From the IMG/VR virus record IMGVR_UViG_3300009034_000021, positions 1 through 64,000 of that record: a stretch of 64,000 nt of DNA. One strand, written 5' to 3'. Origin of the DNA: an uncultured virus (IMG/VR IMGVR_UViG_3300009034_000021) (lineage: Duplodnaviria > Heunggongvirae > Uroviricota > Caudoviricetes). The translations under genes were made by a program, and so were the position numbers. The notes beneath the pieces were generated by a model. It ran no database searches. It was given only the letters and a program-made list of their open reading frames with translations, and was not told the DNA's origin. Below, one piece after another: positions 725 through 27,364 of this stretch (its first letter is position 1; the number at the start of each line of letters is the position of its first letter).

Positions 725-793
725 TCGTGGATATTCGCCTTGGCGGATTAGCCAATGTATACGGGGAATAGGTTGAAAACTGAAGTGGAAGAA

Positions 794-1052
794 CTTTCAA
801 TGCTAAGATCTGATTTTAGACAGTTGCAACCAAAGTTTTCTTGCGCGTTTTCGCCACCGCCATTGTCCTTTCAATGCTAAGATCTGATTTTAGACAGTTG
901 CAACCCGCAATGCAACGCGATGCACAGATAGACTGATAATCGCTTTCAATGCTAAGATCTGATTTTAGACAGTTGCAACCCGCTCGGATTTAAAACAAAG
1001 TTCGTTGACTCTTCACTTTCAATGCTAAGATCTGATTTTAGACAGTTGCAAC
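794..1052 (+). CRISPR. CRISPR array: 4 identical 37-nt repeats CTTTCAATGCTAAGATCTGATTTTAGACAGTTGCAAC and 3 spacers (37, 38, 36 nt)
   Basis: Exact repeats at 794-830, 868-904, 943-979 and 1016-1052; unique spacers at 831-867, 905-942 and 980-1015. Confidence 0.97.
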
Positions 1053-1079
1053 CCGAACTCAAACCACAAGTTCTTGGCA

Positions 1080-1120
1080 TTGACGCAACTGGAGCCGCTG
1101 GATATGGTATAACCCATATC
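1080..1120 (+). promoter_or_regulatory. Candidate sigma70 promoter between the array and the anti-repeat, overlapped by a 7-bp inverted repeat
   Basis: TTGACG(1080-85)-17 bp-TATGGT(1103-08), or alternatively TGG-TATAAC. Palindrome GATATGG-tataac-CCATATC at 1101-1120. Confidence 0.5.
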
Positions 1121-1167
1121 GCGAGTGGTCGCAAATCGTTTTTTGTACAAAAATACGGCAGATTTGC

Positions 1168-1460
1168 GAAATCGAAATCTTAGCATTGAGAGCAGCCTCA
1201 GTCACCAGCAGAGTTTGCCGCCTGCTGATGGGACTACGTTGCGAGGTAAAGTTAAAATACATTACCAAGACCAAATGGTCGCGATATGTGACGCACTCCG
1301 GGGTGCTCCCTCAGCTCCGGACTCTGCAACTGATAGTGGCAGACAATTGCGAAAAAGCACGAAACGCGCTATCAGACGTGCTGGCCTCGTGACATTGGCG
1401 AGGGGGACCATTACGGCGCACATGCCGGTCAAGCACTCCTTGACAATTCGTGTGCAAAAG
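1168..1460 (+). ncRNA. omegaRNA/HEARO-like scaffold beginning with an anti-repeat (tracrRNA-like)
   Basis: 1177-1192 ATCTTAGCATTGAGAG pairs with repeat nt 1-16 (one U-G). It is followed by omegaRNA-type blocks AGCCTCAG..GACTACGTTG, CACTCCGGGGTGCTCCCTCAGCTCCGGACTCTG and ACATTGGCGAGGGGACCATTAC, directly upstream of iscB. Confidence 0.85.
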
Positions 1461-1467
1461 GAACGAA

Positions 1468-2760
1468 ATGGTTTATGTACTGCATCAGGACAATTCACCA
1501 TTGATGCCGACCAGTCCAGCGAAAGCAAGGCATTTACTGAGAGACAGTAAAGCAAAGTTGGTGAACGTGGAGCCATTTACAATCCAGTTGATGGTTCCGA
1601 GCAGTAAGCATGTTCAGCCTGTGATCGTTGGTGTAGATCCAGGCGCAAGTAAAGCCGGCTTTGCAGCAATCGGCAACGGAAAAGTGCTTTATCAAGGTGA
1701 GGTCGCCCTGCGTACAGATATTTGCTACAGAGGCAAGGACGGCAATTACAAGGGCAGAATGCCAACGAGGGCTATGTATCGTCGAAACCGCCGTGGTCGC
1801 AAATGTCGCTATCGTGCACCAAGATACAAAAATCGTGCAGCCAGCAGACGGAAGGGTAGACTTCCGCCGAGTATTCAAAGTCGGAGCGATACCACCGTCA
1901 AAGTTGCCAAGTATATTGCTGGTTTTTTGCCGGTGAGCGAGATAATAATGGAGGTAGCCAACTTTGACACGCAGGCGATGCGAGCGGGCCACAAATTGCC
2001 GAATTGGGCTTATCAACGTGGCGAATTATATGGCCAGGAAAATGTCAAGATGTACGTTCGGGCTAGAGACAAATACACTTGCCAATATTGTGGCGAGGTT
2101 ATGCCAAAGCGATTGGAAGTAGATCACATCATTCCTCGTGCAAAAGGCGGGACATTGACGCCTGATAATTTGGTGACATCCTGCCACGATTGCAATCAAA
2201 GAAAGGGCAATAGAACTGCTGAGGAATTCGGTTATCCTAAGATACAGCAGAAAGTCAAAAAGTCTTTAAAGGCCGCTGCTCATACACAAGCAGGCAAGAA
2301 TGCAACATTACGGGGACTTGCCAAAATAGCACCTGTAATGTTGACCTATGGATACATTACTAAACTCAATAGAATAAAAATGAGGCTACCAAAAACTCAC
2401 TTTTATGACGCGGTGGTCGTTGCAGCACGAGGGAAGCCCACGAAATCTTTGGGCTGGTATGAAAAGATGAAAGCAGTATCGCGAGGACAAAGACAGCAGT
2501 ACAAAGCCAATCCATCTAAAGGCCATGTTTTCAGAAAGGCTAGACTGCCTTACGAAGTTTTTGGCTTTCGTATGTGGGACAAAGTTCAATTGCCTAATGG
2601 TATTATTTGTTTTATAGGAGCAAGACGTCAGTCTGGTAGCTTTAGAGTTAAGGATATTGATGGGCACGGGATTGGAAATATTACGTACAAGAAACTCAAG
2701 TTAGTTGAAAGGGCTAAAACGCTGCTGAAAATCACAGAAAGGTTGGCAAATGACTACTAG
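1468..2760 (+). CDS. iscB: IscB RNA-guided endonuclease (PLMP, RuvC-I/II/III, bridge helix, HNH)
   Basis: N-terminal SPLMPT, RuvC-I VGVDPG, Arg-rich helix RRNRRGRKCRYR, RuvC-II MEVANFD, HNH CQYCG..EVDHIIP..NLVTSCHDCN, RuvC-III THFYDA. SD AAGGA before ATG 1468. Confidence 0.95.
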   Translation: MVYVLHQDNSPLMPTSPAKARHLLRDSKAKLVNVEPFTIQLMVPSSKHVQPVIVGVDPGASKAGFAAIGNGKVLYQGEVALRTDICYRGKDGNYKGRMPTRAMYRRNRRGRKCRYRAPRYKNRAASRRKGRLPPSIQSRSDTTVKVAKYIAGFLPVSEIIMEVANFDTQAMRAGHKLPNWAYQRGELYGQENVKMYVRARDKYTCQYCGEVMPKRLEVDHIIPRAKGGTLTPDNLVTSCHDCNQRKGNRTAEEFGYPKIQQKVKKSLKAAAHTQAGKNATLRGLAKIAPVMLTYGYITKLNRIKMRLPKTHFYDAVVVAARGKPTKSLGWYEKMKAVSRGQRQQYKANPSKGHVFRKARLPYEVFGFRMWDKVQLPNGIICFIGARRQSGSFRVKDIDGHGIGNITYKKLKLVERAKTLLKITERLANDY

Positions 2761-3904
2761 ACATAAAGTCGGCTGGCATGTCGGAAATGAAAATATCCCG
2801 TTCGCCAAAGGTCAAAAGTCGGTTGTTCGTGCCGTCCCACCGGCTGCGCTGACTTTCATCACCGGTGAAGGATTCCAGCCTGATCACATGCGCTGGGTTC
2901 TGAATGAAGTCAACCCCGACTGTCATTTTTTCTTTAGACCATATTTTGTCCCCAGCAACAAACCACTTGACTATCAGAATTATCTCAATGCAGTTGAAAG
3001 CCTCATCGCCCAGCCGACGTGGGACTTCATCCCTGAACCACAGCGCCACCTACAAATCTTCAACGAACAAAATATGCCGCGTGATTCTCAATGGGAGGGC
3101 TTTGGCGCTTTCGCAGACGATATGAGGCGGTTCAACGATTGGTTCTGTCGTGGCTATGACCAGCTCAAGGCCGTCAACCCGACTTTCAAAATAGGCTGGA
3201 CGCCTCTCACGCCTGGCAACCGTGATGTATACTTTGAGGGCGATCCTGAGGATGTACCCTACTACATGCATGGGTCCGAAGCGGCTAACCCCAATGCGAC
3301 CTCTAGAGACATTCAGCGGGCCATCAAGTCTGGCCCATGCTACGAGTCGCTGATGAAAGCCGACGAGTACCTGGCCCATATTTACGTCGTTAACGACGCC
3401 GGACACCAAATCTACCAGCCTTGGGGCGGGCTGCGATGGCACGAGTACGAAAAGTACCTGCCCAAACCGATGGACATCTGGATAACCGAACTCGGCATCC
3501 AACACGGCTCGTGGGGCGCATGGTTTAACTTACTCAATCGGTATCCGCAGGTCAAGGGTACGTCCATCTGGCGCTTGGGCCACGAAATCAAATCGGCGGC
3601 AAACCCGGCGGTGCAGGAGATACACAATTATCTGGAGGGCTCACCCCCCACTCCGGAGCCTGCACCGCCGGCCACTTCTGTTGAAGAGCAAATCAGGGAT
3701 TCAGCCTGGCGTAGAGTCGGCGTTCGTTATAACCCTGAGGCGGCCTTTGCCCTCTACGCCAGGCTAGAACAACTCGGCGCACCTCTGTCCGATGAATATG
3801 ACGAGACCATAGACGACACGACGTTTCGTATCCAACCGTTCGTCGGCGGCGTCGTCGTGGCTGAGGTGGGCCAGTGGGACAAGGTCAGTCATCTGGAATG
3901 GTAA
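2750..3904 (+). CDS. Glycoside hydrolase-like TIM barrel with a C-terminal LGFP-like cell-surface binding repeat (endolysin candidate)
   Basis: Clan GH-A-like IFNEQN and IWITELG motifs; Pro-rich linker; LGAPLSDE..QPFVGGVV repeat. Confidence 0.55.
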   Translation: MTTRHKVGWHVGNENIPFAKGQKSVVRAVPPAALTFITGEGFQPDHMRWVLNEVNPDCHFFFRPYFVPSNKPLDYQNYLNAVESLIAQPTWDFIPEPQRHLQIFNEQNMPRDSQWEGFGAFADDMRRFNDWFCRGYDQLKAVNPTFKIGWTPLTPGNRDVYFEGDPEDVPYYMHGSEAANPNATSRDIQRAIKSGPCYESLMKADEYLAHIYVVNDAGHQIYQPWGGLRWHEYEKYLPKPMDIWITELGIQHGSWGAWFNLLNRYPQVKGTSIWRLGHEIKSAANPAVQEIHNYLEGSPPTPEPAPPATSVEEQIRDSAWRRVGVRYNPEAAFALYARLEQLGAPLSDEYDETIDDTTFRIQPFVGGVVVAEVGQWDKVSHLEW

Positions 3905-4380
3905 ACCAAGATCTGCCAACAAATGCCAATGAAATACTGGCTAGCGCCACGCCAGATCAAATTAAGTGGGTAGTGGCTCGTTTGACTAGCAAAACGGATC
4001 GAGAGGCTGCTAAATCAATTGGTGTTCATCCATCTACTGTCAGCAAGTGGCCCAACAAAGCTAAGCTTTATGAGGCTGTTAGTATTCTACTCCGTGAGCC
4101 AGTTGAGACCGCCTTAAAAATTTTGCAAGAGGCAGCGATAGATGCAGCCAACGTTTTGGTGGATGAATTAGGGCACAAAAACAAACTACGTGCCGCTGAT
4201 AGCATCTTAGATCGAATTGGTCTGCGAGGAGTGCAAAAACAAGAAATCAGCGGGCCTGGTGGTGGACCCCTCGTGATAGGAAACGTCACCCTCAATGACA
4301 AACAACGCGCTGAGGCCGTCCAGCAACTACTCGGCCAATTTCCTGAAATCGCTGCTGGAGGCTTACCTGAAACCGAATAA
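3898..4380 (+). CDS. terS: Terminase small subunit
   Basis: HTH (DREAAKSIGVHPSTVSKW), C-terminal KQEISGPGGGPL, immediately upstream of TerL. Confidence 0.75.
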   Translation: MVNQDLPTNANEILASATPDQIKWVVARLTSKTDREAAKSIGVHPSTVSKWPNKAKLYEAVSILLREPVETALKILQEAAIDAANVLVDELGHKNKLRAADSILDRIGLRGVQKQEISGPGGGPLVIGNVTLNDKQRAEAVQQLLGQFPEIAAGGLPETE

Positions 4381-6910
4381 TGCATTGTGGCTTCCTTTGC
4401 CGGGACCACAATTGGATGCACTCGTTTCGCCGGCCGATGAACTATTTTTCGGCGGAAGTGCCGGCGGGGGCAAACTCCTGAGCGTCGATGCCGTGGTCTG
4501 GACCCCATTTGGCCCTAAGCGTCATGGCGAGTTAGCGGTTGGTGATCAGGTGTGTAATCCTGATGGCAGCATTGCTCGTGTAATCACAGTGAGCCATTAT
4601 CGGAATGTGCCTCTATATCGGGTGACTTGCATAGATGGTGCTTCTGTATTGGCCGGAGCCAATCATAATTGGTTGGTGAAGATTGCCAGCGTGCGATTCA
4701 AGGCTCAACGTAGGATGTTCAACAATGAATCTAATTCGTTTGATGATCCTATAATACGAGCACGGGTAATGACGACCGCTCAACTCAAAGAATGTGTTGA
4801 TCGCGCTTATGAAGCTCAGCGGCAGGGCAAGCGACCTTATTGGCCTTTGCTTCCATTGACTCAGCCGGTCACCATGACAGTGAGCCATCGTTACCCTGAT
4901 GGGGTGTGGCCGATTGATCCCTATGTGCTTGGTGTTATTTTGGGTGATGGGCATATTGTAAAAAAGGTAAGTTTGACCACGTCCGATTTGTCAATCTCGG
5001 ATGCATTTACACGGGAAATGCATCGGTTAGGCGCGAGGGTTGTGCGTGATGATAGAGAAGGCAATGCAGCTTGGCAACTCAGGGTCAATGGTGCCACTGG
5101 AGTTGTACGGGCCCTACAGAAGTTAGATTTACAAGGTTGCCGTTCAGAATCCAAGTTTGTTCCTGAATCCTATAAGCGTGCCTCGGTGGACATGCGATGG
5201 GCGATGTTACAGGGTTTAATGGATACAGATGGCACCGCCGATTTCCGTGGACATTGTTCATTCTGTAGTGTGTCAAACAAGCTCGCGCTAGATGTCCAGT
5301 GGTTGGCTCGCAGTCTTGGATTTAAGGCTACTTTGTTTGAGAAAGAACCATTTTATCTCGGCGATGATGGACGCAGAATACATTGTCAATTGGCATATCA
5401 AGTTTATATCCAAGGAAAGGATACGGCGCGTTTGTTCAGACTGGAGCGCAAAAGTTCTCGTTGTCGTCCGTATAATGGTGGTTTCAGTCAGCCAATGCGT
5501 CGTGTGGTTGGAGTGGAGCTTGAGGATGAAAGCAATGCAGTATGCATTGGAGTTGATCATCCCAATGGACTTTATCTTACCGATGATTTTATCGTCACTC
5601 ATAACACTGACCTTTTGTTAGGCACGGCGATGCTGGCCCATAAGAAATCGATCATCTTCCGTCGTGAGCACGCCCAACTTACCGGCGTGGATAGTATTAT
5701 TGAGCGCAGTCGGGAATTGCTCAATGACGTGGCACGGTTCAACGGTCAAACTAATATATGGCGGGATATTCCCGGCGGCCGGATGCTAGAGTTTGGGGGT
5801 GTTCAACGCGAGCACGACACGAACAAATACAAGGGTAAATCGCACGATCTCAAAGCCTTTGATGAGGTTTCCGAATTTACTGAGTCTCAGTACCGGTTCT
5901 TAATTGGCTGGGCCAGGACGACGGACCCAAATCAACGTGTTCGGGTCATCGCCACGGGCAATCCACCTACCCACGTTAGAGGAGAATGGGTAATAAAATA
6001 CTGGGGCCCTTGGTTAGACAGCCAACACCCTCACCCAGCACGGCCTGGTGAACTGCGCTGGTTCGCTATGATAGACGGCGCAGACGTGGAGGTTGAGAAT
6101 GGCGAGCCATTTCAGCATAATGGTGAAATCATTAAGCCCAAAAGTCGGTCGTTCATACCAGCGAAATTGAGTGATAATCCCTATCTAGCGAATACCGACT
6201 ATGCCACCGTACTTCAGAACCTGCCTGAGCCGCTGCGTTCACAGTTGCTCTATGGCGATTTCAATGTCGGGGTAACAGACGACCCATGGCAGGTGATACC
6301 GACCGAATGGGTCAGACTGGCCTTTGAGCGATGGAAACAGCGAAAAAAACCAGATGTGCCACTTGCCGCCATTGGCGCCGACATAGCACGTGGCGGAAAA
6401 GACCAACTGGTTATCAGCGAGCGATATGATAACTGGTTCGCGCCATTAAAAAAGTATCCTGGCAAATCTGTCCTGGATGGGCCAGCAGCGGCGGCCCTAG
6501 TCGTCAAAATTCCAGGCAGCGCCGGCGCGTGCATCAACGTAGACGTGATAGGCATTGGTTCATCGGCCTACGATTCGTTAGCCAGCCAAAATTCAAACGT
6601 CGTGGCTCTCAACTTTTCTGAGGCGACGACAGCCAGGGATAGAAGTGGCCGGCTGAAAATGCGCAATGTCAGGGCCGAGGCATATTGGGGGATGCGCGAG
6701 GCATTAGACCCTGAGCTAGGCGACGACTTGGCTTTGGCGCCCGACAACGAACTCTTGGCCGACTTGACGGCGCCGAGATGGAAGTTAACGACGTCAGGTA
6801 TACTAATTGAAGAGAAAAAGGCCATTGCCGAACGGTTGGGCCGTTCGCCTGATTGTGGCGACGCGGTCGTCATGGCGCGCATGGGACAGAGGGGAGTATT
6901 TTTTGGCTAA
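4295..6910 (+). CDS. terL: Terminase large subunit containing an intein
   Basis: Walker A GGSAGGGK/T split by the intein, Walker B AFDEVSE, ATGNP coupling motif, nuclease GADIARGG..D, C-terminal RSPDCGDA. Confidence 0.93.
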   Translation: MTNNALRPSSNYSANFLKSLLEAYLKPNNALWLPLPGPQLDALVSPADELFFGGSAGGGKLLSVDAVVWTPFGPKRHGELAVGDQVCNPDGSIARVITVSHYRNVPLYRVTCIDGASVLAGANHNWLVKIASVRFKAQRRMFNNESNSFDDPIIRARVMTTAQLKECVDRAYEAQRQGKRPYWPLLPLTQPVTMTVSHRYPDGVWPIDPYVLGVILGDGHIVKKVSLTTSDLSISDAFTREMHRLGARVVRDDREGNAAWQLRVNGATGVVRALQKLDLQGCRSESKFVPESYKRASVDMRWAMLQGLMDTDGTADFRGHCSFCSVSNKLALDVQWLARSLGFKATLFEKEPFYLGDDGRRIHCQLAYQVYIQGKDTARLFRLERKSSRCRPYNGGFSQPMRRVVGVELEDESNAVCIGVDHPNGLYLTDDFIVTHNTDLLLGTAMLAHKKSIIFRREHAQLTGVDSIIERSRELLNDVARFNGQTNIWRDIPGGRMLEFGGVQREHDTNKYKGKSHDLKAFDEVSEFTESQYRFLIGWARTTDPNQRVRVIATGNPPTHVRGEWVIKYWGPWLDSQHPHPARPGELRWFAMIDGADVEVENGEPFQHNGEIIKPKSRSFIPAKLSDNPYLANTDYATVLQNLPEPLRSQLLYGDFNVGVTDDPWQVIPTEWVRLAFERWKQRKKPDVPLAAIGADIARGGKDQLVISERYDNWFAPLKKYPGKSVLDGPAAAALVVKIPGSAGACINVDVIGIGSSAYDSLASQNSNVVALNFSEATTARDRSGRLKMRNVRAEAYWGMREALDPELGDDLALAPDNELLADLTAPRWKLTTSGILIEEKKAIAERLGRSPDCGDAVVMARMGQRGVFFG
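4475..5605 (+). mobile_element. Intein (377 aa) with LAGLIDADG homing endonuclease, class 3-like
   Basis: Inserted between P-loop K and T. Block B HNW, block C LGVILGDG, block E LQGLMDTDG, block F VCIGVD, C-terminal VTHN/T. Confidence 0.92.
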
Positions 6911-8667: not shown

Positions 8668-10285
8668 AGTCAGTTGGTCAAAAGTCGAGCGTGATTGGGA
8701 TGAATACTGGACTCAATTCGCCGGCGAGGAATGGCGAAGGGCATTCATGCCAGTGCTACGAGGGATAATCACGGCACAGGATGAAAGCATCAACACTACG
8801 TTTGGGATAGAGTTTAACGTAAGGAACCTGTTCAGCGAGGCATACCTGCACGATACCGACTTTGGCTATTGGTTTGAGAATTACGTAGATACATTTTCTA
8901 AACCAGTACTAGAGACGACAAAGAAAGACCTGCGGGACTTGCTGTTGCAAGCACAACAGAACGGCTGGACGATTGAGCAGATGCGAGAACAACTTGACCT
9001 GAATTGGGACAAGTATCTCGATCCAAAATTCACGTTGGAAGGTCGTGGGTTGACCGAAGAAGAACGGGATTGGTTCGAGGAACGCAATCCACGTTACCGT
9101 AAAGACTTGATAGCGCGTGACCAAACGATGCGGGCCAGCAACACGGGTGGGTATTATCTCTATCGCGCCTGGGGCGCGCCGATGAAAGAATGGCTGGCGA
9201 CGGGAGACGCTCGCACGAGAGATACACATTTGGCAGCATGGCAGATGTACAGCGAGGGAGGCAATCCGGGACCGATCCCGATGGAGATACCGTTCAAGGT
9301 CGGCGGGTTCAGTTTGATGTACCCTGGCGATCCGTCTGGGCCGCCGCAGGAGTCAATCCAGTGCCGGTGTACGACGCTGCCATTCTATCCTGAGTTTGCG
9401 GGGACGGAAGAGGAGGTGGCACAGGCGCGGGCGGGGATGGAGGCGGAGATTGGGCGGCGGGAGGGGGAACAAAGGAGGCACAGGAGAGGAGAACCTTGGC
9501 GTGGAGTAGCAGGACAAATACCAGTAGGGGAAGATCATACTACTGAGTTCATGGAAAAGTGGTTTACGGAAGGATTAGAAATAACACAGAATTGGCGCGA
9601 TGCCCCAATTAGCGCCCAGGGACGTGCCAAAGATGAGTTAGTCAGGGCGATTTCCGAGCGAAGCGGCATACCATATGAGAGCGTGAACAAAATTATTAGA
9701 CAGTGGGCACAGACCTCCAATGACGATGACATGCGATCCTTGGCGATGCAAAAAGCAGCAGTGGAACACTTTGGAGTTCCACTATCTGATTTTTCAAAAG
9801 GCAAAATTGATCTCATTTTACAAAAGGTGAATGATTCGTTGGGATATGGTGTTACTTTTGAAGAATTATATGAATTGGGGATTGAGCAACAACGTATACG
9901 TCCTAGATACTCTCCTTTGATGGAAAATGAGCAATTAAAAACAGTTTTGGGAGCAATGTACGAGAATACCCAAGAACGATTAGCGGCAGCGGGATTTGGG
10001 CCAGGAACTACTATCAGAATGAGGCGGGGCGTATACTTGCCAACGGAGGTTACGAAGGATTGGGAAGTAGGAGATACTGTACCTATCGAGGGCAACGCGA
10101 TTGAAAGCTGGTCAATAGGCCCAGATATTTCGGCGCGTTTTGGTGGCACGATTTTTGAAATGGACGTGCCGGTGGAGATGATCGTCGGCTCGGCGCGCTC
10201 TGGCTATGGTTGCTTAACTGAGGGGGAATTTGTCATCCTGGGCAGCACGCCGAGTGAGGCAAAATTACTGAGAGTTGGAAAATGA
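8507..10285 (+). CDS. MuF/SPP1 gp7-like minor head protein with a C-terminal ADP-ribosyltransferase-like domain
   Basis: MuF motifs KEWLATGDARTRDTH and YPGDPSGPPQESIQCRC; C-terminal R-G / S-W-S / E-x-E triad. Confidence 0.85.
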   Translation: MGLTARQKQRFLTGFDRRALGWEKAFARAMEKAMLANKRALLKLLRAAKSFKAEVSWSKVERDWDEYWTQFAGEEWRRAFMPVLRGIITAQDESINTTFGIEFNVRNLFSEAYLHDTDFGYWFENYVDTFSKPVLETTKKDLRDLLLQAQQNGWTIEQMREQLDLNWDKYLDPKFTLEGRGLTEEERDWFEERNPRYRKDLIARDQTMRASNTGGYYLYRAWGAPMKEWLATGDARTRDTHLAAWQMYSEGGNPGPIPMEIPFKVGGFSLMYPGDPSGPPQESIQCRCTTLPFYPEFAGTEEEVAQARAGMEAEIGRREGEQRRHRRGEPWRGVAGQIPVGEDHTTEFMEKWFTEGLEITQNWRDAPISAQGRAKDELVRAISERSGIPYESVNKIIRQWAQTSNDDDMRSLAMQKAAVEHFGVPLSDFSKGKIDLILQKVNDSLGYGVTFEELYELGIEQQRIRPRYSPLMENEQLKTVLGAMYENTQERLAAAGFGPGTTIRMRRGVYLPTEVTKDWEVGDTVPIEGNAIESWSIGPDISARFGGTIFEMDVPVEMIVGSARSGYGCLTEGEFVILGSTPSEAKLLRVGK

Positions 10286-10431
10286 CAAAACACAAAAAAG
10301 TTGTCAACATCGGCGACACAGACAAAAATGCCGATTGGATCAAAACGCCAAAAAACCGTGAAAGCGAACGGCGAATACACGAAGAATTGGAGAAGCAATA
10401 TCGTGAGCGGAAGGATAAAAAAGGGTGCTAG
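10282..10431 (+). CDS. 49-aa charged ORF translationally coupled to MuF-ART (below ORF track cutoff)
   Basis: ATGA overlap with the MuF stop; MTKHKKVVNIGDTDKNADWIK... Confidence 0.5.
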   Translation: MTKHKKVVNIGDTDKNADWIKTPKNRESERRIHEELEKQYRERKDKKGC

Positions 10432-10568
10432 CCAATGCCCTACCCACAACTCTCTGTGGATGGGGCCAAATCCAGACTTGCGCGCAGCACAGGCGGCTAT
10501 TGGGACACTTGGTGGCGATCTGATCGAATTTGACGAAATAGAATACGTCGAGGGATGGATATATTAGA

Positions 10569-11741: not shown

Positions 11742-11798
11742 AGCGGCATTTTTCTGGACAGCGTAACACCGTCCAAAAAAGTGCCGCTTTTTTATTTT
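11742..11798 (+). terminator. Intrinsic terminator-like hairpin
   Basis: AGCGGCATTTTTCTGGAC / GTCCAAAAAAGTGCCGCT stem followed by TTTTTATTTT. Confidence 0.65.
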
Positions 11799-14700
11799 AT
11801 GATGGAAATTGCCAAAATTACACCGGAATCTATACGAGAGGAGAGCAACGAGGCTCTATTGAACTTGCATCGTCATTTGCATGGTTTATGGTCTCAGCAC
11901 TTCGCTGATGGCGAGAGGACTACAAACGGTCTGACGAAAGAAGACTTAGTTAATGCCCATGTATTCGTGCGTGATGATATGGCACGACGGAAGATGCAAC
12001 ATGCAAGCGAACCACGAAATGGTTTGGATAAAGCGACACGTGAATTGAGCCGTAAGGGACTGGACGACGTGCTGAGCGAATCGGCAGAGGACACAATACT
12101 TGTCCCGGCCATCGTCACCATCACCGGTTCGGTGGGCGAGGGGCGCGAGAAGGCAGAAGACCTCGATGTACTGATACGGGCTGACCGGATCGAACAGGCA
12201 GGGAATCCCGGCTTTTTGATACGGGCAGAGGATATCGAGTTGCCAGTGCGAAAGCGATTTGATCCTGAGAAGACTGGGCTTGAAGTTCATTGGAATACAA
12301 ATCCGCAGGGTCCGCACGCGGATTATCTGCACATGGCCGATCTGGTATTACGGTGGCGGAGCCCGGTGGAACAAGTTTCGGTCAAGGCTGGCCGCCGTGT
12401 GCGTCAGGTGCGATTGGCACAGATACAAGGATTATTAACACGACTCAAGGATTTAGAACAAGAGATCGAAGGTTTTCTAGAGTGGGCCGAATATCGCGAT
12501 GTGCCGTTGATTACAGTCGTAGACGGACATTACATCCAACGTGAGGGAAAGCAGACACCGCTTGTACCGACAGAGTTCAAGCCAGCGATAGACGAGAAAT
12601 GTGTCTGTCCGGAATGTAAACACGAAAGTGGGCCGGCGGAAGGCAAAACTTGCATTGAGACGAAATGTCCAGAGTGTGGAGCATTGATGAAAGCCAAGGA
12701 GCCCACAGCGGTAGAGCCGGCGAAAGCAGCCGAGATAAAAGTCGTCGCTCCCGGCAAGCGATACTCAGTAATGAAGCCAAGCATGACAGGCGTGACGGAG
12801 TATTTTTCAACGGATGAACTGTGGGGCTGGACGCAAAAGAAATTGGAAGGCGATCATGCGCTATTGGGCAGTCCGAAGATAGACGGTTTTAGGGCAGTCA
12901 TCTCAAAGGATGGCGACACCTCAGTGTGGTTTGAAGATAGCAAAGAAACGAAGACGCCGCCAGGTATGCCTGAGTTGACGGGGCCGTCGTTCGTGATCGA
13001 GGGTGAATTCACGGCAAAACGCGGCGATAAATGGTTGGCCCGGACACAACTGGCCGGCGTCGTAGCAGGAAAGACGGAAGCGAGGCCACATTTTTGGCTA
13101 TACGACCTGCTTTATCACGATGGTGAGGACGTCAGCCAACGACCTTTCACCGAACGCCTGACTCTATTGAAAAAACTCAAATTGCCAGAACGCCACTTTA
13201 CGGTACTGGCTCAGCGTTCGGTACGCGGGCAACGAGACTTAGGGGCAGTGGGTAAATGGGCTGCTGGCCGGCCGCTATCAGAAGGACTGTTTCTGCGGGT
13301 TGCTGATGCAAAGTATGCATTTGGATCCAGTGACAGTTGCGCCAAACTCAAGACGGTGGCGGAACTAAAAGTCCAAGTCATTGATTCAGAGCGCAAGAAA
13401 AACGGAATCGTGTACCACGTTGGCCTTCGCGAGCCAGGCAAGTTCAGCAATGTGGCTGGAGAACTACTGGACTTGGGTAACACGTTCGTCGGCCCAGATC
13501 AGAGAGTAAAGGCCGGCGATACACTGAACGTTGTCTGTGAGGAATTAGTCATCGGCAGCAAGGACAGTAGACCAATTCTGCTCTGGGGCAAACCGACTGT
13601 GCAGGGCCCTGATAAATCACGACCGGCGTATACGACTGAACAGGCTATCAGCCTGGCACGGCGAAAGCACATCCTCAAAGAGGAGATAGCCACATCAGAA
13701 ACAAAAGCGGCAAAGTTGGAGGAGACACGAGGAGAACGGGCTGGGCGATCCTGGAAAGATAACTGGGCTAAATTAGTGATAAAGGGTGAAGGTAAATTCA
13801 TCCTGCACGGGCATTTTCCGGCCCTGACGGAAGAAGAATCAAAGTGGGACCTTCAAAAGTTGCTGGCGGCCAACAAGCAATATCATACTGATTTGAGGAA
13901 CGAGGCGCCGAGGCCGAATGGAGCATGGGGTTTCACGAACTATGAGGGGCGTGGCAGTAAGGTAGGGCCAAAGAGTACGCGGTTGTACAAAATGCCATCA
14001 AACAAACCGATGCGCGGTAGTTTTAAATTAGAACAGCCTCGCGCCTGGTTAACACATGCCAAGAACAAGCCAGAAGTGCACGAAGACGTCGGAGTCACAG
14101 GGAAGGACTGTGCAAAATTTTTTGCTTTGGACTGGGGACGTTACAAATTGACTTTCGCACGCGAGCATGCCTTCGAGATAATTTACGACGGCGCAAAAGG
14201 CGTGATGAACGGACGATATCAGATCAATTACGTCCCCGTAGGAGATGAGCGCGCATGGATGATATCACGGCCAGAAACGCAGGATGAGATTTACGCCGAC
14301 GAACACAAACTCGACACAGTACGCGATGACGTAAGGAGAAAAGGCCAGCAATGGTTGTTCTGGCGTGAGTCGTTGGGTGCTCCGCTACAGAAAATAAATG
14401 TGCGGAGTAGCAAGGAGAGCAAAATGCATGAAATGAATTTGAACGGTGAACTCACTGAGTTGGAGCTTCTGGATTTAGGCAGAACGGTGAAAGCCGCAGC
14501 CACACTCAGGTCTGCGCTGGAGGCGGCGTTAAAACGAATCGATAAAGAAGATGCCGAAGGCGCGATTGGACGGTTGCGGGCTGCGTTAGACAAAGTTAAT
14601 GATTACGGCTATGGCTATGGCTCACCGACCGGCGAGAAGGCAGTCAGTGCGAGTGCGATCAAAAAAGAGTTGAATCGTTGCATCGCTGGACTGGAGGATG

Positions 14701-15485
14701 ACGAACCTGACTATGGTAAAGCAAAAACCGTCCTTCAGAAATTGTTGGGTCGGCTGGGTTATGGCTCGTCTGATAAGGCGACTTCAGTAGATGCACTGAA
14801 GAAACAACTTATGCAGGTCATAGGTGAACTCAATCGTGACGAGCCGGATATGGAAAAAGTGGCCAGTGCTCTGCAAGGAGCCTTGGGCAAACTTGGCAAA
14901 AGTGAAGCGAAGGCAGCCGAATTAACAGCGGTAAAGATGCTGCGTGAGGAAAATGGCGGTGCGGTAGTCGGCGGGCACCTGTTGTTGTGGGGTAGCCCAG
15001 GGCAGAAGGACCTAGACGGCGACTACTTTACGCCGGAAACCAATCTGTGGCTTGATGAATACAAGTCAGTGCCGGCGATGTTTCATCACGGGCTTGATGC
15101 GAAAATCGGCCTGACGGCCATCGGCAGACGGCTTAAGGCAGCCAAAGATGACATTGGCGTATGGGTCGAAGATTGGTTGGATAAAAGCCACAAATACTGG
15201 GCTTTCGTCGAGAAGCTGTTAAAAGCCGGAGCATTGTATTATTCACCCGGATCGGCGCCACATTTGGTAGAACGGGAAACGGATGGGCGGCTAAAATCTT
15301 TCGCCGTGGTAGACGACACCCTGACACCCATCCCGTGCCAATATCGATTACGTCCCGTATCCGAAATCCAGGCGTCCTACAAGGCGGTTGGATTGGAGTT
15401 GCCAGATGTAGCGTTGGACAAAGGTGGACTGAAAGAAGAAATCGAAAAAACCGAGTCGGAACTGAAACGACTCATGGAGGTGTAA
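11799..15485 (+). CDS. Head polyprotein: nucleotidyltransferase-like + Zn ribbon + ATP-dependent ligase + LigD-like 3'-phosphoesterase + helical repeats + prohead protease
   Basis: ITGS..EDLDVL; CVCPEC..CPECG; ligase motifs PKIDGFR, IEGEF, LYDLL, EGLFLR, AKLK; FILHGH..HTDLRNE; C-terminal DLDGDYF..FHHG..YSPGS protease-like domain directly before the MCP. Confidence 0.8.
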   Translation: MMEIAKITPESIREESNEALLNLHRHLHGLWSQHFADGERTTNGLTKEDLVNAHVFVRDDMARRKMQHASEPRNGLDKATRELSRKGLDDVLSESAEDTILVPAIVTITGSVGEGREKAEDLDVLIRADRIEQAGNPGFLIRAEDIELPVRKRFDPEKTGLEVHWNTNPQGPHADYLHMADLVLRWRSPVEQVSVKAGRRVRQVRLAQIQGLLTRLKDLEQEIEGFLEWAEYRDVPLITVVDGHYIQREGKQTPLVPTEFKPAIDEKCVCPECKHESGPAEGKTCIETKCPECGALMKAKEPTAVEPAKAAEIKVVAPGKRYSVMKPSMTGVTEYFSTDELWGWTQKKLEGDHALLGSPKIDGFRAVISKDGDTSVWFEDSKETKTPPGMPELTGPSFVIEGEFTAKRGDKWLARTQLAGVVAGKTEARPHFWLYDLLYHDGEDVSQRPFTERLTLLKKLKLPERHFTVLAQRSVRGQRDLGAVGKWAAGRPLSEGLFLRVADAKYAFGSSDSCAKLKTVAELKVQVIDSERKKNGIVYHVGLREPGKFSNVAGELLDLGNTFVGPDQRVKAGDTLNVVCEELVIGSKDSRPILLWGKPTVQGPDKSRPAYTTEQAISLARRKHILKEEIATSETKAAKLEETRGERAGRSWKDNWAKLVIKGEGKFILHGHFPALTEEESKWDLQKLLAANKQYHTDLRNEAPRPNGAWGFTNYEGRGSKVGPKSTRLYKMPSNKPMRGSFKLEQPRAWLTHAKNKPEVHEDVGVTGKDCAKFFALDWGRYKLTFAREHAFEIIYDGAKGVMNGRYQINYVPVGDERAWMISRPETQDEIYADEHKLDTVRDDVRRKGQQWLFWRESLGAPLQKINVRSSKESKMHEMNLNGELTELELLDLGRTVKAAATLRSALEAALKRIDKEDAEGAIGRLRAALDKVNDYGYGYGSPTGEKAVSASAIKKELNRCIAGLEDDEPDYGKAKTVLQKLLGRLGYGSSDKATSVDALKKQLMQVIGELNRDEPDMEKVASALQGALGKLGKSEAKAAELTAVKMLREENGGAVVGGHLLLWGSPGQKDLDGDYFTPETNLWLDEYKSVPAMFHHGLDAKIGLTAIGRRLKAAKDDIGVWVEDWLDKSHKYWAFVEKLLKAGALYYSPGSAPHLVERETDGRLKSFAVVDDTLTPIPCQYRLRPVSEIQASYKAVGLELPDVALDKGGLKEEIEKTESELKRLMEV

Positions 15486-18760: not shown

Positions 18761-19402
18761 ATGCTTGGAGAGATAATGGACAACGATACACCTCAGTTAT
18801 ACGATGAAGGCGAAGAGCAATGGAAGACCAAGTTGCACCTCGGCTGCGGCAATATCTATTTGATAGGCTACGAGAATATCGACGTAGTCGGTGTTCTGGC
18901 CGATGAGCGTCCTGATTTAGTAGAGGCGAACAGGACGAATATCAAGAGTTATTACGGGCGGCGGACGGCATACACCGATATTCACCATATTGTGCCAAGG
19001 GCAGGTTATGTCGTAGACCGGCGAATGTGCATGACAAATCTTGGGAATGAGATTGGTTCAGTCAACAAAATTGTGTGTATTCAGGCATTAGAACATCTAC
19101 AACCTAATGATGGTGTAAGAGCGCTGACGCATTGGCATGATCTACTCAAACAGGATGGAATATTGATGATATCTGTCCCTGACACGTCTGAGACCGTGGA
19201 AATGTTGCTCGACGAATGCACTAGGGATTTCGCTATCCAACACCTGGCTGGGACACGAACGGATCAACATAGTTATCACCGTAATCATTTTACACGGCTA
19301 TGTTTGTCCGCTCTTTTAACGTTGCATGGTTATGGAGAAATTGAATTCTTGTCAAACTTTCATCGTTATCCAGCCATTGTGGTAAGGGCGAAAAGATTAT
19401 AG
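18761..19402 (+). CDS. Class I SAM-dependent methyltransferase
   Basis: KLHLGCG, ALEHL, LKQDGILMISVPD. Confidence 0.8.
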   Translation: MLGEIMDNDTPQLYDEGEEQWKTKLHLGCGNIYLIGYENIDVVGVLADERPDLVEANRTNIKSYYGRRTAYTDIHHIVPRAGYVVDRRMCMTNLGNEIGSVNKIVCIQALEHLQPNDGVRALTHWHDLLKQDGILMISVPDTSETVEMLLDECTRDFAIQHLAGTRTDQHSYHRNHFTRLCLSALLTLHGYGEIEFLSNFHRYPAIVVRAKRL

Positions 19403-19439
19403 TAGACAAGACTATTTTTGAAAGGAGTGATAAGATACA

Positions 19440-21110
19440 TTGTCCAAAATAGCCGGTTTTACGCTGACTAAGACACCTCACCAACCCCAAGCTCCACTGT
19501 GGTTGATCAAATATCCTCATGTGACGACTAAACATCTCAATTGTAACGAATGGTCATTATTTTTATGGGGTTGCGGAGACTTGACACAATTTATTTCCGA
19601 TAACACGATCATCGTCGGCTACTCAGATATTGATATGGCGACGTTGGATGTGTACCCGTTGCAAAATCGAGGATTGATCATCAGGCTAGACGAACATGCT
19701 ACAATCACGAACGATGCATTGGGAATGATGCAGGTATTCTACGGTAGCAAGGACGGTGTGCCGTGGATTTCCACGTGCGAGGAATCGGTTATTCGGGGAT
19801 TGGGCAGAGTAACATTGGGGCCAGGGCGACTGGCCGGATATCTAATGTTACAAAGCACCTCCGCTTCGTTGACACTATGGAGTGAAATCGATAAACTTTA
19901 TGCTAACTCTTTACTGAGTATTTCGCCTGATGGCAATTTCCGGCAAAGTTTTCAGGAACCACTGAATTTCACGCCGATGAAAAAGGATTACGTCACGCAA
20001 ATGGCGAGCGTGTTGCGCGAGACAGTGCATCACTACACTGATCCGCTGGACGATGTGATCCTGATGTTGTCTCATGGCCATGATTCTCGACTCATTCTGT
20101 GCAACATGCTGAGGCCAGAACGGGTGCATGCTAGAACTTTCCCCTTGTCGCATCCGGCAGGACGAGCCCACGACGTCGTCATCGCGAAAGAATCGGCGCG
20201 ACTGGCTGGAGTGACGGATCACAAGGTTATTGATCTAGGACAGAACCAACTGCGTGATTGTACACGGCCAGCGACGGAATTTTATGGTACACCGTTGGGC
20301 GCGGTGCAGATTTACCTCTACGACGTATGCGAACGAGTAGGGCGCGAAAACCCATCGTGGCCTATCATAACGGGATTGAACGGTGACGAACACGCAGGTA
20401 TCGCGTTGTTTCGTTCTCGTAACAAATTACGCCAGGAAAGTGATCCGGCCGATCGGTTCGTATCCGGCTGCTATTCTTGGGTCAAATCGTGGCTACCAAG
20501 AGACCTGGATGCCGGCCTGACGTTTGACTGGCGCGGCGCATTGAAACCGATACGCGAAATCTGGACGCATATTTGGCAAAATACTGAGGGTGATGATCTA
20601 ACGAGGCACGCACATCTGATTCATACCCGCAATAGAGGCAATCAGTATATAACCTACGCCTGGCAGGGATGTGACTTGTATGGTGGGCTTGTGGGCCCCA
20701 TCTATAACGACCGACATTATGTTGAATTCATGCTGTCCTTGCCACACGAGGTATTGAACGAGGGCACGTTCGATTTTGAGGTTCCGATGGCCGGCACGAT
20801 ACGTGAGGTACGGACGGGGCAGGTTGAACTCTTTCAACGATATTTCCCAGAACATTATCCTTATGCCGGACTACCACTCGACGCCTTCGATTGGGCGAAC
20901 CGGCTTGATCCGGACGCATTAGCGAAAGCAAAGGGAGCCGCATTGTGGCCGTTGGTTCCTAATGGATCAAAACCAAGTCATGGGTTTTTTAATGCAGCGA
21001 AGTTCAAGGAACTCTATCGCAAGGCGGTAAATGGTGACATGCGGAGTTATTATCTGCTTAACTCAGTGCAACCGTTGGCATGGGCGATTGAAAAGGGATA
21101 TGTCCAGTGA
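19440..21110 (+). CDS. Asparagine synthetase-like amidotransferase
   Basis: NDALG..VFY, LSHGHDSR (PP-loop-like), ITGLNGDE. Confidence 0.7.
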   Translation: MSKIAGFTLTKTPHQPQAPLWLIKYPHVTTKHLNCNEWSLFLWGCGDLTQFISDNTIIVGYSDIDMATLDVYPLQNRGLIIRLDEHATITNDALGMMQVFYGSKDGVPWISTCEESVIRGLGRVTLGPGRLAGYLMLQSTSASLTLWSEIDKLYANSLLSISPDGNFRQSFQEPLNFTPMKKDYVTQMASVLRETVHHYTDPLDDVILMLSHGHDSRLILCNMLRPERVHARTFPLSHPAGRAHDVVIAKESARLAGVTDHKVIDLGQNQLRDCTRPATEFYGTPLGAVQIYLYDVCERVGRENPSWPIITGLNGDEHAGIALFRSRNKLRQESDPADRFVSGCYSWVKSWLPRDLDAGLTFDWRGALKPIREIWTHIWQNTEGDDLTRHAHLIHTRNRGNQYITYAWQGCDLYGGLVGPIYNDRHYVEFMLSLPHEVLNEGTFDFEVPMAGTIREVRTGQVELFQRYFPEHYPYAGLPLDAFDWANRLDPDALAKAKGAALWPLVPNGSKPSHGFFNAAKFKELYRKAVNGDMRSYYLLNSVQPLAWAIEKGYVQ

Positions 21111-21814
21111 AAGACCATCAAACGAAGGCCGAATTTGAGCGTATTTATTTCTATCACATACGTAAAGCCGGTGGACAAAGTATCTATCATGCCATCTTGG
21201 AAAAATTATGTGGAGTTGATTCGTTCACGATTGAAAATTGGTTGACACGGGCGAACATAATGTTCTGCGATGGAAAACCTATCATAGGTTGGGACGATAA
21301 ACAGATTAATCGTGGCGATTTTTATTTTGCCTTTTCGCATCACGCGATGCACGAGTTGTTGCCTATGCCTGATGATACCTTTGCCTTTACTTGCTTTAGA
21401 GATCCGGTCCCGCGAGTCGTCTCACACTATCGCATGTTGAAGAGCTTTCGGGAGATGGAAATACGGGGTGACGTGCTGAAAGCAGAAGCCCAGTGGGCAA
21501 AAGACAATTTTAGTGAGTTTTTAGACAATTTACCCCAGCGACACCTGATGAATCAATTGTGGATGTTCTCGGCAGAGTACGATCCGGAAGAAGCATTAGA
21601 AAATGCCAGCAAACTCTCGTACTTCTTTTTCCTAGACAAGTTCAGCGTTGGACTATCTAAACTATCGAATCTCATCGGAATAGAACTCGAAGAAAAGCAC
21701 ATCATGGTGTCCACGTCTGAATTCGCCATGAAGCCAGAGGAAGGCGAACGTTTACAAGAGTTGTTAATTCCTGAATACCAGTTTTACGAAGGATTGCAGG
21801 AACTATGGAAGTAA
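21107..21814 (+). CDS. Sulfotransferase family protein
   Basis: 5'-PSB FYHIRKAGGQS and 3'-PB FRDPVPRVVSHY. Confidence 0.85.
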   Translation: MKDHQTKAEFERIYFYHIRKAGGQSIYHAILEKLCGVDSFTIENWLTRANIMFCDGKPIIGWDDKQINRGDFYFAFSHHAMHELLPMPDDTFAFTCFRDPVPRVVSHYRMLKSFREMEIRGDVLKAEAQWAKDNFSEFLDNLPQRHLMNQLWMFSAEYDPEEALENASKLSYFFFLDKFSVGLSKLSNLIGIELEEKHIMVSTSEFAMKPEEGERLQELLIPEYQFYEGLQELWK

Positions 21815-27232: not shown

Positions 27233-27364
27233 ATTGCGACTGATTTAGAGAGGGAATCAGATTTTTGATCTTCAGGGATACGGCCCGTATTGAGTCGTGT
27301 CCCTTCAAATTCATGACATCAGATGAGGCAAAGTTATGTCATCAATTACTGAGTAAGGAAAATA

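Follow-up and report, generated by a model that had tools for sequence, protein, structure and literature searches.

A probable CRISPR-associated IscB system with a multi-spacer array on a complete tailed phage

A complete tailed phage (Caudoviricetes) of ~71 kb carries a short CRISPR-like array, an anti-repeat, an omegaRNA scaffold and an iscB gene, all in one block and on one strand, and we consider it quite probable that this locus is a phage-borne CRISPR-associated IscB system. The arrangement is conserved in two close relatives of the protein, in which, as here, each repeat pairs most stably with its own anti-repeat. The features (Table 1) lie in a window of 64,000 nt, i.e., positions 1-64,000 of the 71,298-bp IMG/VR record IMGVR_UViG_3300009034_000021 (uncultured Caudoviricetes).

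Table 1 Features of the iscB locus and its surroundings (positions in the window)
Feature	Position	Strand	Description
Upstream flanking gene, 85 aa	467..724	+	Intact; left edge of the intergenic slot holding the module
S0	757..793	+	Sequence 5' of repeat 1, assigned by position alone
Repeat R1	794-830	+	37 nt; R1 to R4 are exact copies
Spacer S1	831-867	+	37 nt
Repeat R2	868-904	+	37 nt
Spacer S2	905-942	+	38 nt
Repeat R3	943-979	+	37 nt
Spacer S3	980-1015	+	36 nt
Repeat R4	1016-1052	+	37 nt
Linker	1053..1124	+	No conservation in the alignment of three loci
Nested hairpin	1129..1169	+	Outer stem of 8-9 bp round a 5-bp inner hairpin; directly 5' of the anti-repeat
Anti-repeat	1168-1192	+	1177-1192 pairs with repeat nt 1-16; 1169-1174 with repeat nt 18-23
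omegaRNA (HEARO-type) scaffold	1179..1467	+	Without a 5' P1 strand of its own; reaches the iscB ribosome-binding site
iscB, 430 aa	1468..2760	+	Intact ORF; ATG behind AAGGA
Downstream flanking gene, 384 aa	2750..3904	+	Intact; full length against 10 homologues, same N-terminal HKVGW
Small and large terminase subunit genes	3874-6910		Downstream of the 384-aa gene

Array, anti-repeat, scaffold and IscB protein

The original prediction, made from the letters of the sequence, had described four identical 37-nt repeats, a 25-nt anti-repeat ~115 nt past the array, an omegaRNA-type scaffold and an intact IscB of ~430 aa with RuvC and HNH motifs, and had argued from a wobble pair that the RNA is read from the plus strand; every one of these elements was recovered in the present analysis. 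The array comprises more than two repeats with unique spacers, on the same strand as the adjoining iscB, and the repeat has no further copies anywhere in the 71,298-bp record. S0 would be a fourth guide only if transcription begins upstream of it. A promoter scan found no promoter-like site upstream of the array in the window, and in L010, a close relative, an 11/12 match to the sigma-70 consensus lies ~40 nt ahead of the first repeat. The scan returned five sites (2.8 ± 1.7 expected from shuffles), among them a bare consensus match in the linker (TTGACG, 17 nt, TATGGT at 1080-1108) from which a tracr-like RNA of its own might be transcribed. The locus was not found in any run recorded as RNA; in DNA run X1 (marine sediment metagenome), a 3244-nt contig matches 1125-1173 with five differences and a 237-nt contig has three differences over 1207-1443.

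Complementary to the repeat and joined to the omegaRNA core, the anti-repeat follows the last repeat (end 1052) after a gap of 115 nt and directly precedes the conserved CAGCCTCAG core, at the place where canonical relatives hold the 3' strand of stem P1. No other plus-strand site in the 64-kb window matches with two or fewer mismatches, and shuffles lead one to expect 0.03. Its main segment forms 16 pairs with the repeat, one of which is a U.G wobble available in plus-strand RNA only, and in the minimum-free-energy fold the second segment adds a weaker extension of the duplex. Cognate pairing is the most stable in all three loci compared (the window, L010 and L009): the repeat of the window reaches -27.1 kcal/mol with its own anti-repeat vs -22.2 and -23.0 with the others, that of L010 -34.0 vs -25.3 and -27.9, and that of L009 -18.4 vs -9.1 and -13.0, with shuffled anti-repeats at -9.9 ± 2.8 and -15.9 ± 3.4. 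Plus-strand RNA is favoured both in the window (-27.1 vs -24.3) and in L010 (-34.0 vs -22.3). The proposed structure pairs 90.7% of cells in the three-locus alignment, vs 36-53% after a shift of the 3' partners by 1-3 columns; two of its pairs change on both sides, a covariation that on three sequences does not separate from chance (214 of 500 shuffles reach the observed values). A further pairing, of the 3' end of the repeat with scaffold positions 1314-1321, was considered and dropped, as by eye it is not kept in L010.

The scaffold, which we take to be of HEARO type, matches the Rfam family HEARO (RF02033) at 1179-1414 on the plus strand (35.6 bits, E 4e-5). Lacking the 5' stem, the match does not reach the family's gathering score of 83: the first hairpin of the match has 10 nt instead of 48, and those 10 nt are the anti-repeat. 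The corresponding scores are 40.3 bits in L010 and 30.8 bits in L009, and 74.5-95.7 bits in canonical relatives, the lowest of which (L013, 74.5) also lies under the cut-off. In the canonical loci L013-L015, stem P1 consists of GTCAAC, two hairpins and GTTGAC, followed by CAGCCTCAGCC; the window has the same core, with the anti-repeat replacing the 3' strand of canonical P1. Across 1016-1470 the window, L010 and L009 share 81% mean column identity, the scaffold columns from ~1180 on being mostly invariant, and the fold of 996-1420 has a z-score of -4.2. The outer stem of the nested hairpin is invariant in all three loci and the inner stem shows one compensatory change; a pattern built on this conserved hairpin had no match in IMG/VR.

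The 430-aa protein is, on its sequence, firmly an IscB: an N-terminal PLMP motif (SPLMPT at residues 10-15) precedes a RuvC domain that is interrupted by an arginine-rich bridge (RRXRR) and by an inserted HNH domain, and the C-terminal domain is rich in beta structure. Pfam assigns RRXRR to residues 2-185 (1.6e-52) and HNH to residues 205-249 (1.4e-16), and solved IscBs match at E 1e-30 to 3e-43, TbaIscB, HfmIscB and OgeuIscB being the best. YnpsCas9 and other Cas9 chains align over the HNH and RuvC core only, and 430 aa leave no room for a REC lobe. Across 32 relatives, residues D57, E162, D219-H220, N243, H311 and D314, which we take from the IscB literature to be those of the RuvC and HNH catalytic sites, either never vary or show at least 90% conservation. 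Mean pLDDT in an AlphaFold model of the protein is 63.

The ends of the repeat lend themselves to a second reading. On the minus strand it begins GTTGCAAC and finishes ATTGAAAG, L010 keeping both ends and L009 the GTTGCAAC end (its other end is cut by the contig edge), and such an end is reminiscent of the 8-nt handle found in many repeats of types I and III. The array might accordingly be read in that direction by a class 1 CRISPR-Cas system of the host, independently of IscB. A phage mini-array that borrows host Cas proteins would follow a known strategy (PMC11656645), but the repeat matches no Rfam CRISPR-DR family at E ≤ 1, and its class-1-like pattern is absent from four genomes reached via the loci and from 401 genomes of one phylum, a guessed host. 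Moreover, the CTTTCAAT end is accounted for by pairing with the anti-repeat, and array and scaffold always adjoin on the same strand, with wobble pairs that favour plus-strand RNA. Service to a host class 1 system is therefore extremely improbable.

For the CRISPR-associated IscB system that we favour, the following mechanism can be envisaged. The array would be transcribed on the plus strand, which would place every spacer 5' of a repeat, and repeat nt 1-16 to 1-23 would anneal to the anti-repeat, the 5'-terminal part of a tracrRNA-like omegaRNA. This repeat:anti-repeat duplex would rebuild stem P1, which is intramolecular in canonical omegaRNAs. IscB would bind the two-part RNA, ~16-20 nt of repeat-proximal spacer would find DNA beside a TAM, and the target would then be cut by the RuvC and HNH sites. 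An in-cis duplex between the last repeat and the anti-repeat, closing a 124-nt loop, is also conceivable and would yield a natural single guide.

Relatives and the origin of the array

The IscB belongs to a lineage of ~78 sequence clusters, one subclade of which has arrays in all four loci with upstream DNA. Among the loci that a search of 185,579 representative prokaryote genomes returned, the lineage has no relative of more than 41% identity, and no IscB relative above 38% was found in IMG/VR or above 37% in GenBank phages. Two IscB sequences (P0002 and P0003) reach 82-84% identity, and four proteins (P0121-P0124) are 74-87% identical to the product of the downstream flanking gene. Two close relatives with sequenced surroundings, L010 and L009 (70% and 72% amino acid identity to the IscB of the window), retain array, hairpin, anti-repeat and scaffold with different spacers: L010 has three copies of a related 37-nt repeat, sharing both ends with that of the window, plus a truncated one, and L009 has one copy cut by the contig end. 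The sister subclade L013-L015 has an intact omegaRNA with an intramolecular P1, and full-scoring HEARO RNAs were present at eight of the nine viral IscB loci tested, including that of Ralstonia phage Heva. Our array detector also flagged L087, L114 and L147, at sites that are not upstream of iscB.

In L012 and L068 the last repeat is itself the 5' end of a full-length omegaRNA (HEARO 86 and 127 bits), and in L010 a truncated repeat is still joined to the scaffold. As far as can be read from these loci, close relatives show a graded series that runs from an intact omegaRNA (L013-L015) through an array that continues directly into the omegaRNA (L012, as well as L010 with its truncated repeat) to an array with a separate, apparently free-standing tracr-like scaffold (the window and L009). 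Since the last repeat is the omegaRNA 5' end in L012 and L068, these arrays evidently arose by its duplication, and one may ask whether the array is nothing but the by-product of a tandem duplication of the guide and the P1 5' strand, its copies unused and at most the last unit guiding IscB. The contiguity seen in L012, L068 and L010 speaks for it. Yet the four repeats are identical while the spacers between them are unrelated and uniform in length, and the arrangement is kept at 70-72% protein identity with other spacers, each repeat fitting its own anti-repeat best. Further, the scaffold of the window has no adjoining 5' strand in cis and therefore needs a repeat supplied from elsewhere. We hold an idle by-product to be highly improbable, and the preferred reading remains an array that supplies guides to IscB.

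Phage setting and possible roles of the module

The carrier is a complete phage (CheckV 100%) on whose record no terminal repeats were found and whose PHROGs and Pfam matches include terminase subunits, Mu-F-like head morphogenesis, capsid, tape-measure and tail proteins. No tRNA genes were found on it, and the best relatives of its capsid (at most 33% identity) come from scattered hosts. The 85-aa protein upstream of the module belongs to a small conserved family (94 matches at E ≤ 1e-3), with homologues of ~85 aa aligning over query residues 4-83 and the C-terminal motif kept; the 384-aa protein downstream is probably a cell-wall hydrolase, as its relatives are fused to Amidase_2, PKD or M23 domains. 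Two exact copies of a 15-nt sequence (651-665 and 2763-2777) lie on either side of the module and raised the idea that an insertion had split a gene, which was rejected: both copies are native coding sequence, because the upstream and downstream proteins are full-length members of their families.

The location in a phage without tnpA and the overlap of the iscB stop with the next gene, both of which had been proposed beforehand, were borne out: the stop at 2758-2760 lies beyond the ATG of the next gene at 2750, and no Y1_Tnp match occurs among the 93 ORFs scanned on the 71-kb record. Judged by its genes, and with both flanking genes intact, the module does not qualify as an IS200/IS605 transposon. 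The same 93 ORFs gave no match (Pfam E ≤ 1e-4) to Cas1, Cas2, Cas4, Cas6, Y1 transposase or integrase. Spacer acquisition without Cas1-Cas2 is a point that we count against the main reading. Having neither tnpA nor an adaptation module, the locus would therefore hold three to four guides that stay fixed or change slowly.

Targets of the spacers were sought in the whole phage, ~180 fetched loci, GenBank phages and IMG/VR, and the search was confined to these collections. S1-S3 gave only 14-17 nt chance matches in the phage and the fetched loci, blastn against GenBank phages (E ≤ 10) returned only 77-79% identity over 46-55 nt at E 1-4, and IMG/VR held no exact match to the 3' 22-23 nt of S1, S2 or S3. 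As these searches gave no target, we can only propose what the module does, be it in conflicts among phages or other elements, in homing, or in attack on the host. The module would most likely be used against DNA met in the cell, e.g., competing phages or other mobile elements, and less likely against host loci.

Homing deserves separate consideration. A selfish module might carry guides that match conserved sites in related phages lacking it, so that in a doubly infected cell the rival genome would be cut by IscB and, on repair, acquire the module together with its neighbours (RNA-guided homing or marker exclusion), much as phage protein homing endonucleases do. The position of the module between two intact genes and beside the terminase genes is suggestive of such a life, as is the LAGLIDADG intein in the large terminase gene of the same phage. 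The module also changes contexts, L010 sharing nothing but IscB with the phage of the window and L014 having its IscB relative directly before the small terminase subunit, and canonical IscB and TnpB have been described as homing or retention nucleases (PMC10734277 and PMC13565253). However, no related phage with an empty site was obtained, the flanking gene has relatives in IMG/VR at no more than 35-42% identity and these lack IscB, no spacer matches any fetched sequence, and several unrelated spacers exceed the need of a single homing site. We consider homing unlikely, if less so than any other alternative weighed here, and continue to favour a multi-guide system directed at competing DNA.

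A broader scenario may be added, though we think it rather improbable. Phages and mobile elements, and not cells, would be where IscB repeatedly splits its omegaRNA into an array and a tracr-like scaffold, one lineage preserving the steps, and the class-1-like opposite-strand ends of the repeat might allow the host to insert new spacers through Cas1-Cas2, or its Cas proteins to use the array from the other strand, making the array a dual-use one.

Comparison with known systems

The design of array, anti-repeat and IscB is already published. Altae-Tran et al. 2021 (Science 374:57; as cited in PMC12660989 and PMC10734277) described CRISPR-associated IscB with an array upstream and an anti-repeat, and PMC9755519 makes mention of viral genomes with HEARO/IscB nucleases. 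Accordingly, the original prediction stands in its anatomy and strand logic (repeats, anti-repeat, scaffold and IscB), the design is not new, and the locus is a different branch of a known kind. The further proposal of a domesticated, multiplexed nuclease aimed at competing elements or the host is a hypothesis for which none of the spacers supplied a protospacer. What appears to be new is that a phage carries the system and that the locus belongs to a wider lineage with arrays, with the proviso that the supplements of Altae-Tran 2021 may list the clade or phage sources.

The origin of the Cas9 crRNA:tracrRNA pair from an IscB omegaRNA has been inferred from few loci only, and the window with its relatives provides a natural comparison set at 57-72% protein identity (intact P1, contiguous array, split scaffold). 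As the proteins are closely matched, it becomes possible to test how the split affects activity, the processing of the RNA and the choice of guide. Placing the system in a defined complete phage turns the natural role of CRISPR-associated IscBs into a concrete question on phage competition or homing, and a compact 430-aa protein from a lineage of this breadth (~78 clusters) is a source of small nucleases with possibly different TAMs.

The nearest described system is DelIscB, an engineered CRISPR-associated IscB of 457 aa from an aquatic metagenome (accessible parts of PMC12660989), whose ncRNA for 16-nt guides consists by eye of repeat, ~80 nt, anti-repeat and a CAGACTAAG core (supplement), and for which the authors state that processing into crRNA and tracrRNA was not shown (discussion). 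Both are small IscBs without a REC lobe, with an upstream same-strand array, a long stretch after the last repeat and an anti-repeat directly before the omegaRNA core, and no cas1 or cas2 was found in the phage record here. They differ in that the DelIscB N-terminus is by eye only about one-third identical to that of the window IscB, the repeat and anti-repeat sequences are unrelated, and the carrier here is a complete phage. Canonical OMEGA IscB of IS200/IS605 (OgeuIscB, PDB 7UTN/7XHT; RF02033) shares the protein family and the scaffold core; it uses one guide with an intramolecular P1, whereas in the window the P1 5' strand would come from the array repeats and no tnpA was found.

Type II Cas9, including the compact Cas9d (PMC9755519), has in common with our system the spacer 5' of the repeat in the mature guide, the repeat:anti-repeat duplex and the RuvC and HNH domains. 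Unlike Cas9, the window system has neither a REC lobe (430 aa) nor cas1, cas2 or csn2, its RNA scaffold exceeds a typical tracrRNA several-fold in size, and processing by RNase III is an assumption. Phage-encoded CRISPR systems and mini-arrays resemble it in being phage arrays without an adaptation module, but here the effector adjoins the array, and the word IscB is absent from the accessible sections of PMC11656645. Finally, the TranC systems (TnpB-to-Cas12 intermediates, preprint 10.64898/2026.03.27.714800) offer a parallel in which a transposon nuclease likewise has an omegaRNA functionally split into tracrRNA and crRNA, one of them, CauTranC9, being reported from a phage genome with superinfection exclusion as its proposed role (10.64898/2026.03.27.714800); TranC belongs to the TnpB/Cas12 lineage, whereas the locus described here belongs to that of IscB and Cas9.

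An intact IscB module in a complete phage genome

The IMG/VR record from which the window is taken (its first 64 kb) is 71,298 bp long, 100% complete by CheckV and, judged by its genes, that of a tailed phage. By PHROGs and Pfam matches it encodes both the small and the large terminase subunit, Mu-F-like head-morphogenesis and HK97-type capsid proteins, a tape measure, minor tail proteins, a helicase, a methyltransferase and an RNA ligase. In the large terminase (871 aa), LAGLIDADG homing-endonuclease domains (aa 297-378) mark an intein-like insert that interrupts the protein and is flanked on both sides by terminase matches. The capsid-to-tail gap holds a run of sugar- or modification-type genes (methyltransferases, an asparagine-synthase-like protein, a sulfotransferase, three family-2 glycosyltransferases and an NAD-dependent epimerase) with a possible role in glycosylating the virion or altering the surface of the host. 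Within the head module, a protein of 1234 aa has an ATP-dependent DNA ligase domain (aa 365-524), unusual in both place and size, and a second HNH/endonuclease VII-like gene is free-standing.

Features of the IscB module and other loci in the window
Feature	Position	Strand	Remarks
15-nt direct repeat	651-665 and 2763-2777		exact; brackets the module
Four identical 37-nt repeats	794-1052	+	unique spacers of 37, 38 and 36 nt between them
Anti-repeat	1168-1192	+	115 nt beyond the last repeat; last 16 nt complementary to repeat nt 1-16
HEARO scaffold match	1179-1414	+	Rfam, 35.6 bits, E 4e-5; below the gathering score of 83
iscB, 430 aa	1468-2760	+	AAGGA in front
Large terminase with intein-like insert	4295-6910
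Protein with DNA ligase domain	11781-15485
Sugar-/modification-type gene run	18761-29145
HNH/endonuclease VII-like gene, 179 aa	62165-62704	-

The locus is real and intact: every checkable particular of the original prediction, i.e., a four-repeat array, a downstream anti-repeat, an omegaRNA-type scaffold and an intact IscB, was borne out. The protein carries the Pfam domains RRXRR (1.6e-52) and HNH (1.4e-16), matches the solved TbaIscB, HfmIscB and OgeuIscB at E 3e-43 to 1e-30, and has its RuvC and HNH motifs intact as claimed, the aligned residues being invariant or nearly so in 32 relatives; the assignment of catalytic positions follows the IscB literature. None of the 93 other scanned ORFs matches Cas1, Cas2, Cas4, Cas6, a Y1 transposase or an integrase at Pfam E<=1e-4, and the 37-nt repeat has no further copy anywhere in the record.

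The module sits between two intact genes, one upstream for a protein of 85 aa whose small family is conserved (94 matches) and one downstream for a protein of 384 aa, complete when compared with 10 homologues, whose relatives are fused to amidase, PKD or M23 domains; the iscB stop does overlap the start of the next gene. Both copies of the bracketing 15-nt repeat encode (D/H)KVGW within intact, conserved genes. We rejected the splitting of a gene by module insertion, as these repeats are native coding sequence of both genes, and the bracketing is more probably chance or microhomology than the scar of an insertion.

A candidate two-part guide RNA

The anti-repeat match is unique on the window's plus strand at <=2 mismatches (0.03 expected), and the minimum-free-energy fold of 996-1420 contains the duplex (z = -4.2 vs shuffles) and lengthens it by pairing 1169-1174 with repeat nt 18-23. 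Each repeat ends in 10 nt (CAGTTGCAAC; 821-830 in the first copy) that include the palindrome GTTGCAAC, lie outside the duplex and are invariant in the window and in L010 and L009, two relatives that share the window's split layout of array, anti-repeat and scaffold. The covariance-model check against HEARO, the Rfam omegaRNA model (RF02033), located the scaffold, but the score stays under the gathering score because the model's first 48-nt hairpin is cut to 10 nt; in the Rfam alignment these 10 nt are the anti-repeat. Canonical relatives have a first stem, P1, formed by GTCAAC, two hairpins and GTTGAC, followed directly by the conserved CAGCCTCAGCC core. In the window the anti-repeat holds the P1 3'-strand position before the same core with no adjoining 5' strand, which the array repeats would supply.

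Pairing energies make each repeat's own anti-repeat its best partner in all three loci: -27.1 kcal/mol in the window (-22.2 and -23.0 with the other two), -34.0 in L010 (-25.3 and -27.9) and -18.4 for the 5'-truncated repeat of L009 (-9.1 and -13.0), with shuffled anti-repeats reaching -9.9 ± 2.8 (window) and -15.9 ± 3.4 (L010). The predicted preference for plus-strand RNA was upheld, with one position a U.G wobble in that strand only and minus-strand pairing poorer at -24.3 in the window and -22.3 in L010. Use of the array by a host class 1 system, which would read it from the opposite strand, is less likely. In a three-sequence alignment the proposed structure pairs 90.7% of cells, vs 36-53% with the partners slid; two pairs change on both sides. 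With n=3 sequences the shuffle control does not discriminate, as 214/500 shuffles reach the observed values.

From the anti-repeat position, the cognate pairing and the plus-strand preference we infer a two-part guide RNA, in which array RNA read from the plus strand, each spacer lying 5' of its repeat, would pair with a tracr-like omegaRNA, and the spacer end adjoining the repeat would guide IscB. Near the scaffold a promoter-like sequence occurs just once (1080-1108) and is a consensus match only; a near-perfect promoter precedes the L010 array.

Relatives and the origin of the array

Close relatives of the window IscB (~70 cluster representatives, 55-86% identity) are metagenomic without exception; identity did not exceed 41% in the loci returned for 185,579 representative prokaryote genomes, 38% in IMG/VR or 37% in GenBank phages. 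Seven close loci (L009-L015) were fetched. L010 (70% identity) contains a 37-nt repeat in triplicate, both ends shared with the window's, plus an anti-repeat and a 40-bit HEARO match; at 5655-5669 a truncated fourth repeat (first 11 nt) is fused straight to a conserved hairpin, and because of this junction the L010 scaffold retains a cis P1 strand, with a 66-nt last spacer. L009 (72%), which begins within such a repeat, shares hairpin, anti-repeat and scaffold with L010, and in L012 (61%) an unrelated repeat of 28 nt occurs four times. L013-L015 (57-62%) lack an array within the upstream stretch checked (548 to 1100 nt) and score 74.5-95.7 bits against HEARO, L013 (74.5) itself falling below the cut-off of 83; L011 as fetched has no upstream DNA.

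Among 172 fetched IscB loci of all distances, only L010, L012 and the distant L068 had an array that the repeat detector placed immediately before iscB (three further flags lay elsewhere in loci), thus array association is rare overall yet concentrated in the window's subclade. In a quick maximum-likelihood tree of 85 rows (relatives P0001-P0072 of at least 380 aa, six outgroup picks and seven locus translations; SH-aLRT support), the window lineage is a single 78-row clade (support 100), with the three array-less loci inside a 34-row subclade (96) and all four array-bearing loci in its 40-row sister (99); the three split-layout loci straddle the deepest fork of a 28-row clade (93).

The arrays of L012 (4-330) and L068 (676-1060) run into a full-length omegaRNA whose 5' end is their last repeat (in L012 the P1 5' strand of a full-scoring omegaRNA), which points to tandem duplication of guide plus P1 5' strand as the likely origin of such arrays. 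That the window array is itself a leftover duplication we consider less likely.

IscB is the sole gene common to L010 and this phage, and L010 carries a TnpB (OrfB_IS605) gene at 9318-10499, 2 kb downstream of iscB. Directly after iscB, L013 has a ParA-like protein and L014 (no array, full HEARO) a small terminase subunit (1842-2312, phrog_4102, 7.7e-27), a second link of the lineage to phage packaging genes. No tnpA was seen in the short flanks of L010, L013 and L014.

Function and published systems

No spacer had a protospacer in the phage itself, in ~180 fetched loci, in GenBank phages or, by exact 22-23-mers, in IMG/VR. The module most likely serves to cut DNA met by the phage in the cell, for instance from a competing phage or another mobile element. 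A serious alternative is RNA-guided homing or marker exclusion, given that the module adjoins terminase genes and moves from context to context and that the same phage carries an intein. For a TnpB-derived TranC system in a phage genome, superinfection exclusion has been proposed (2026 preprint 10.64898/2026.03.27.714800).

HEARO nucleases in viral genomes are mentioned in PMC9755519, and 8/9 viral IscB loci tested have a full HEARO RNA upstream. Ralstonia phage Heva gp19 (NC_054960.1; L183 2182-3910), annotated just as HNH endonuclease, is an IscB with 33% identity to the window's, preceded by a full HEARO omegaRNA (120 bits); the gene also occurs in phages Adzire, Simangalove, Claudette and others. 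A literature search outside Altae-Tran et al. 2021 and its supplements found no paper describing a CRISPR-associated IscB in a phage.

The design of array, anti-repeat and IscB is already published. According to PMC12660989, Altae-Tran et al. 2021 first characterised DelIscB, a CRISPR-associated IscB of aquatic-metagenome origin; it has an ncRNA upstream of its ORF with repeats, spacers and anti-repeat, and is active with 16-nt guides. The authors of PMC12660989 state that crRNA and tracrRNA processing remains to be shown. Its printed ncRNA order (repeat, ~80 nt, anti-repeat, scaffold core) is that of the window; the protein, by eye, is on a different branch. A review (PMC10734277) has IscB joining CRISPR independently in several small branches. 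To this published picture we add a complete phage as carrier, an array-rich subclade in a lineage without a >41% relative among loci returned from representative cellular genomes, and, in close relatives, a graded series that leads from the one-piece omegaRNA to an array with a tracr-like scaffold.
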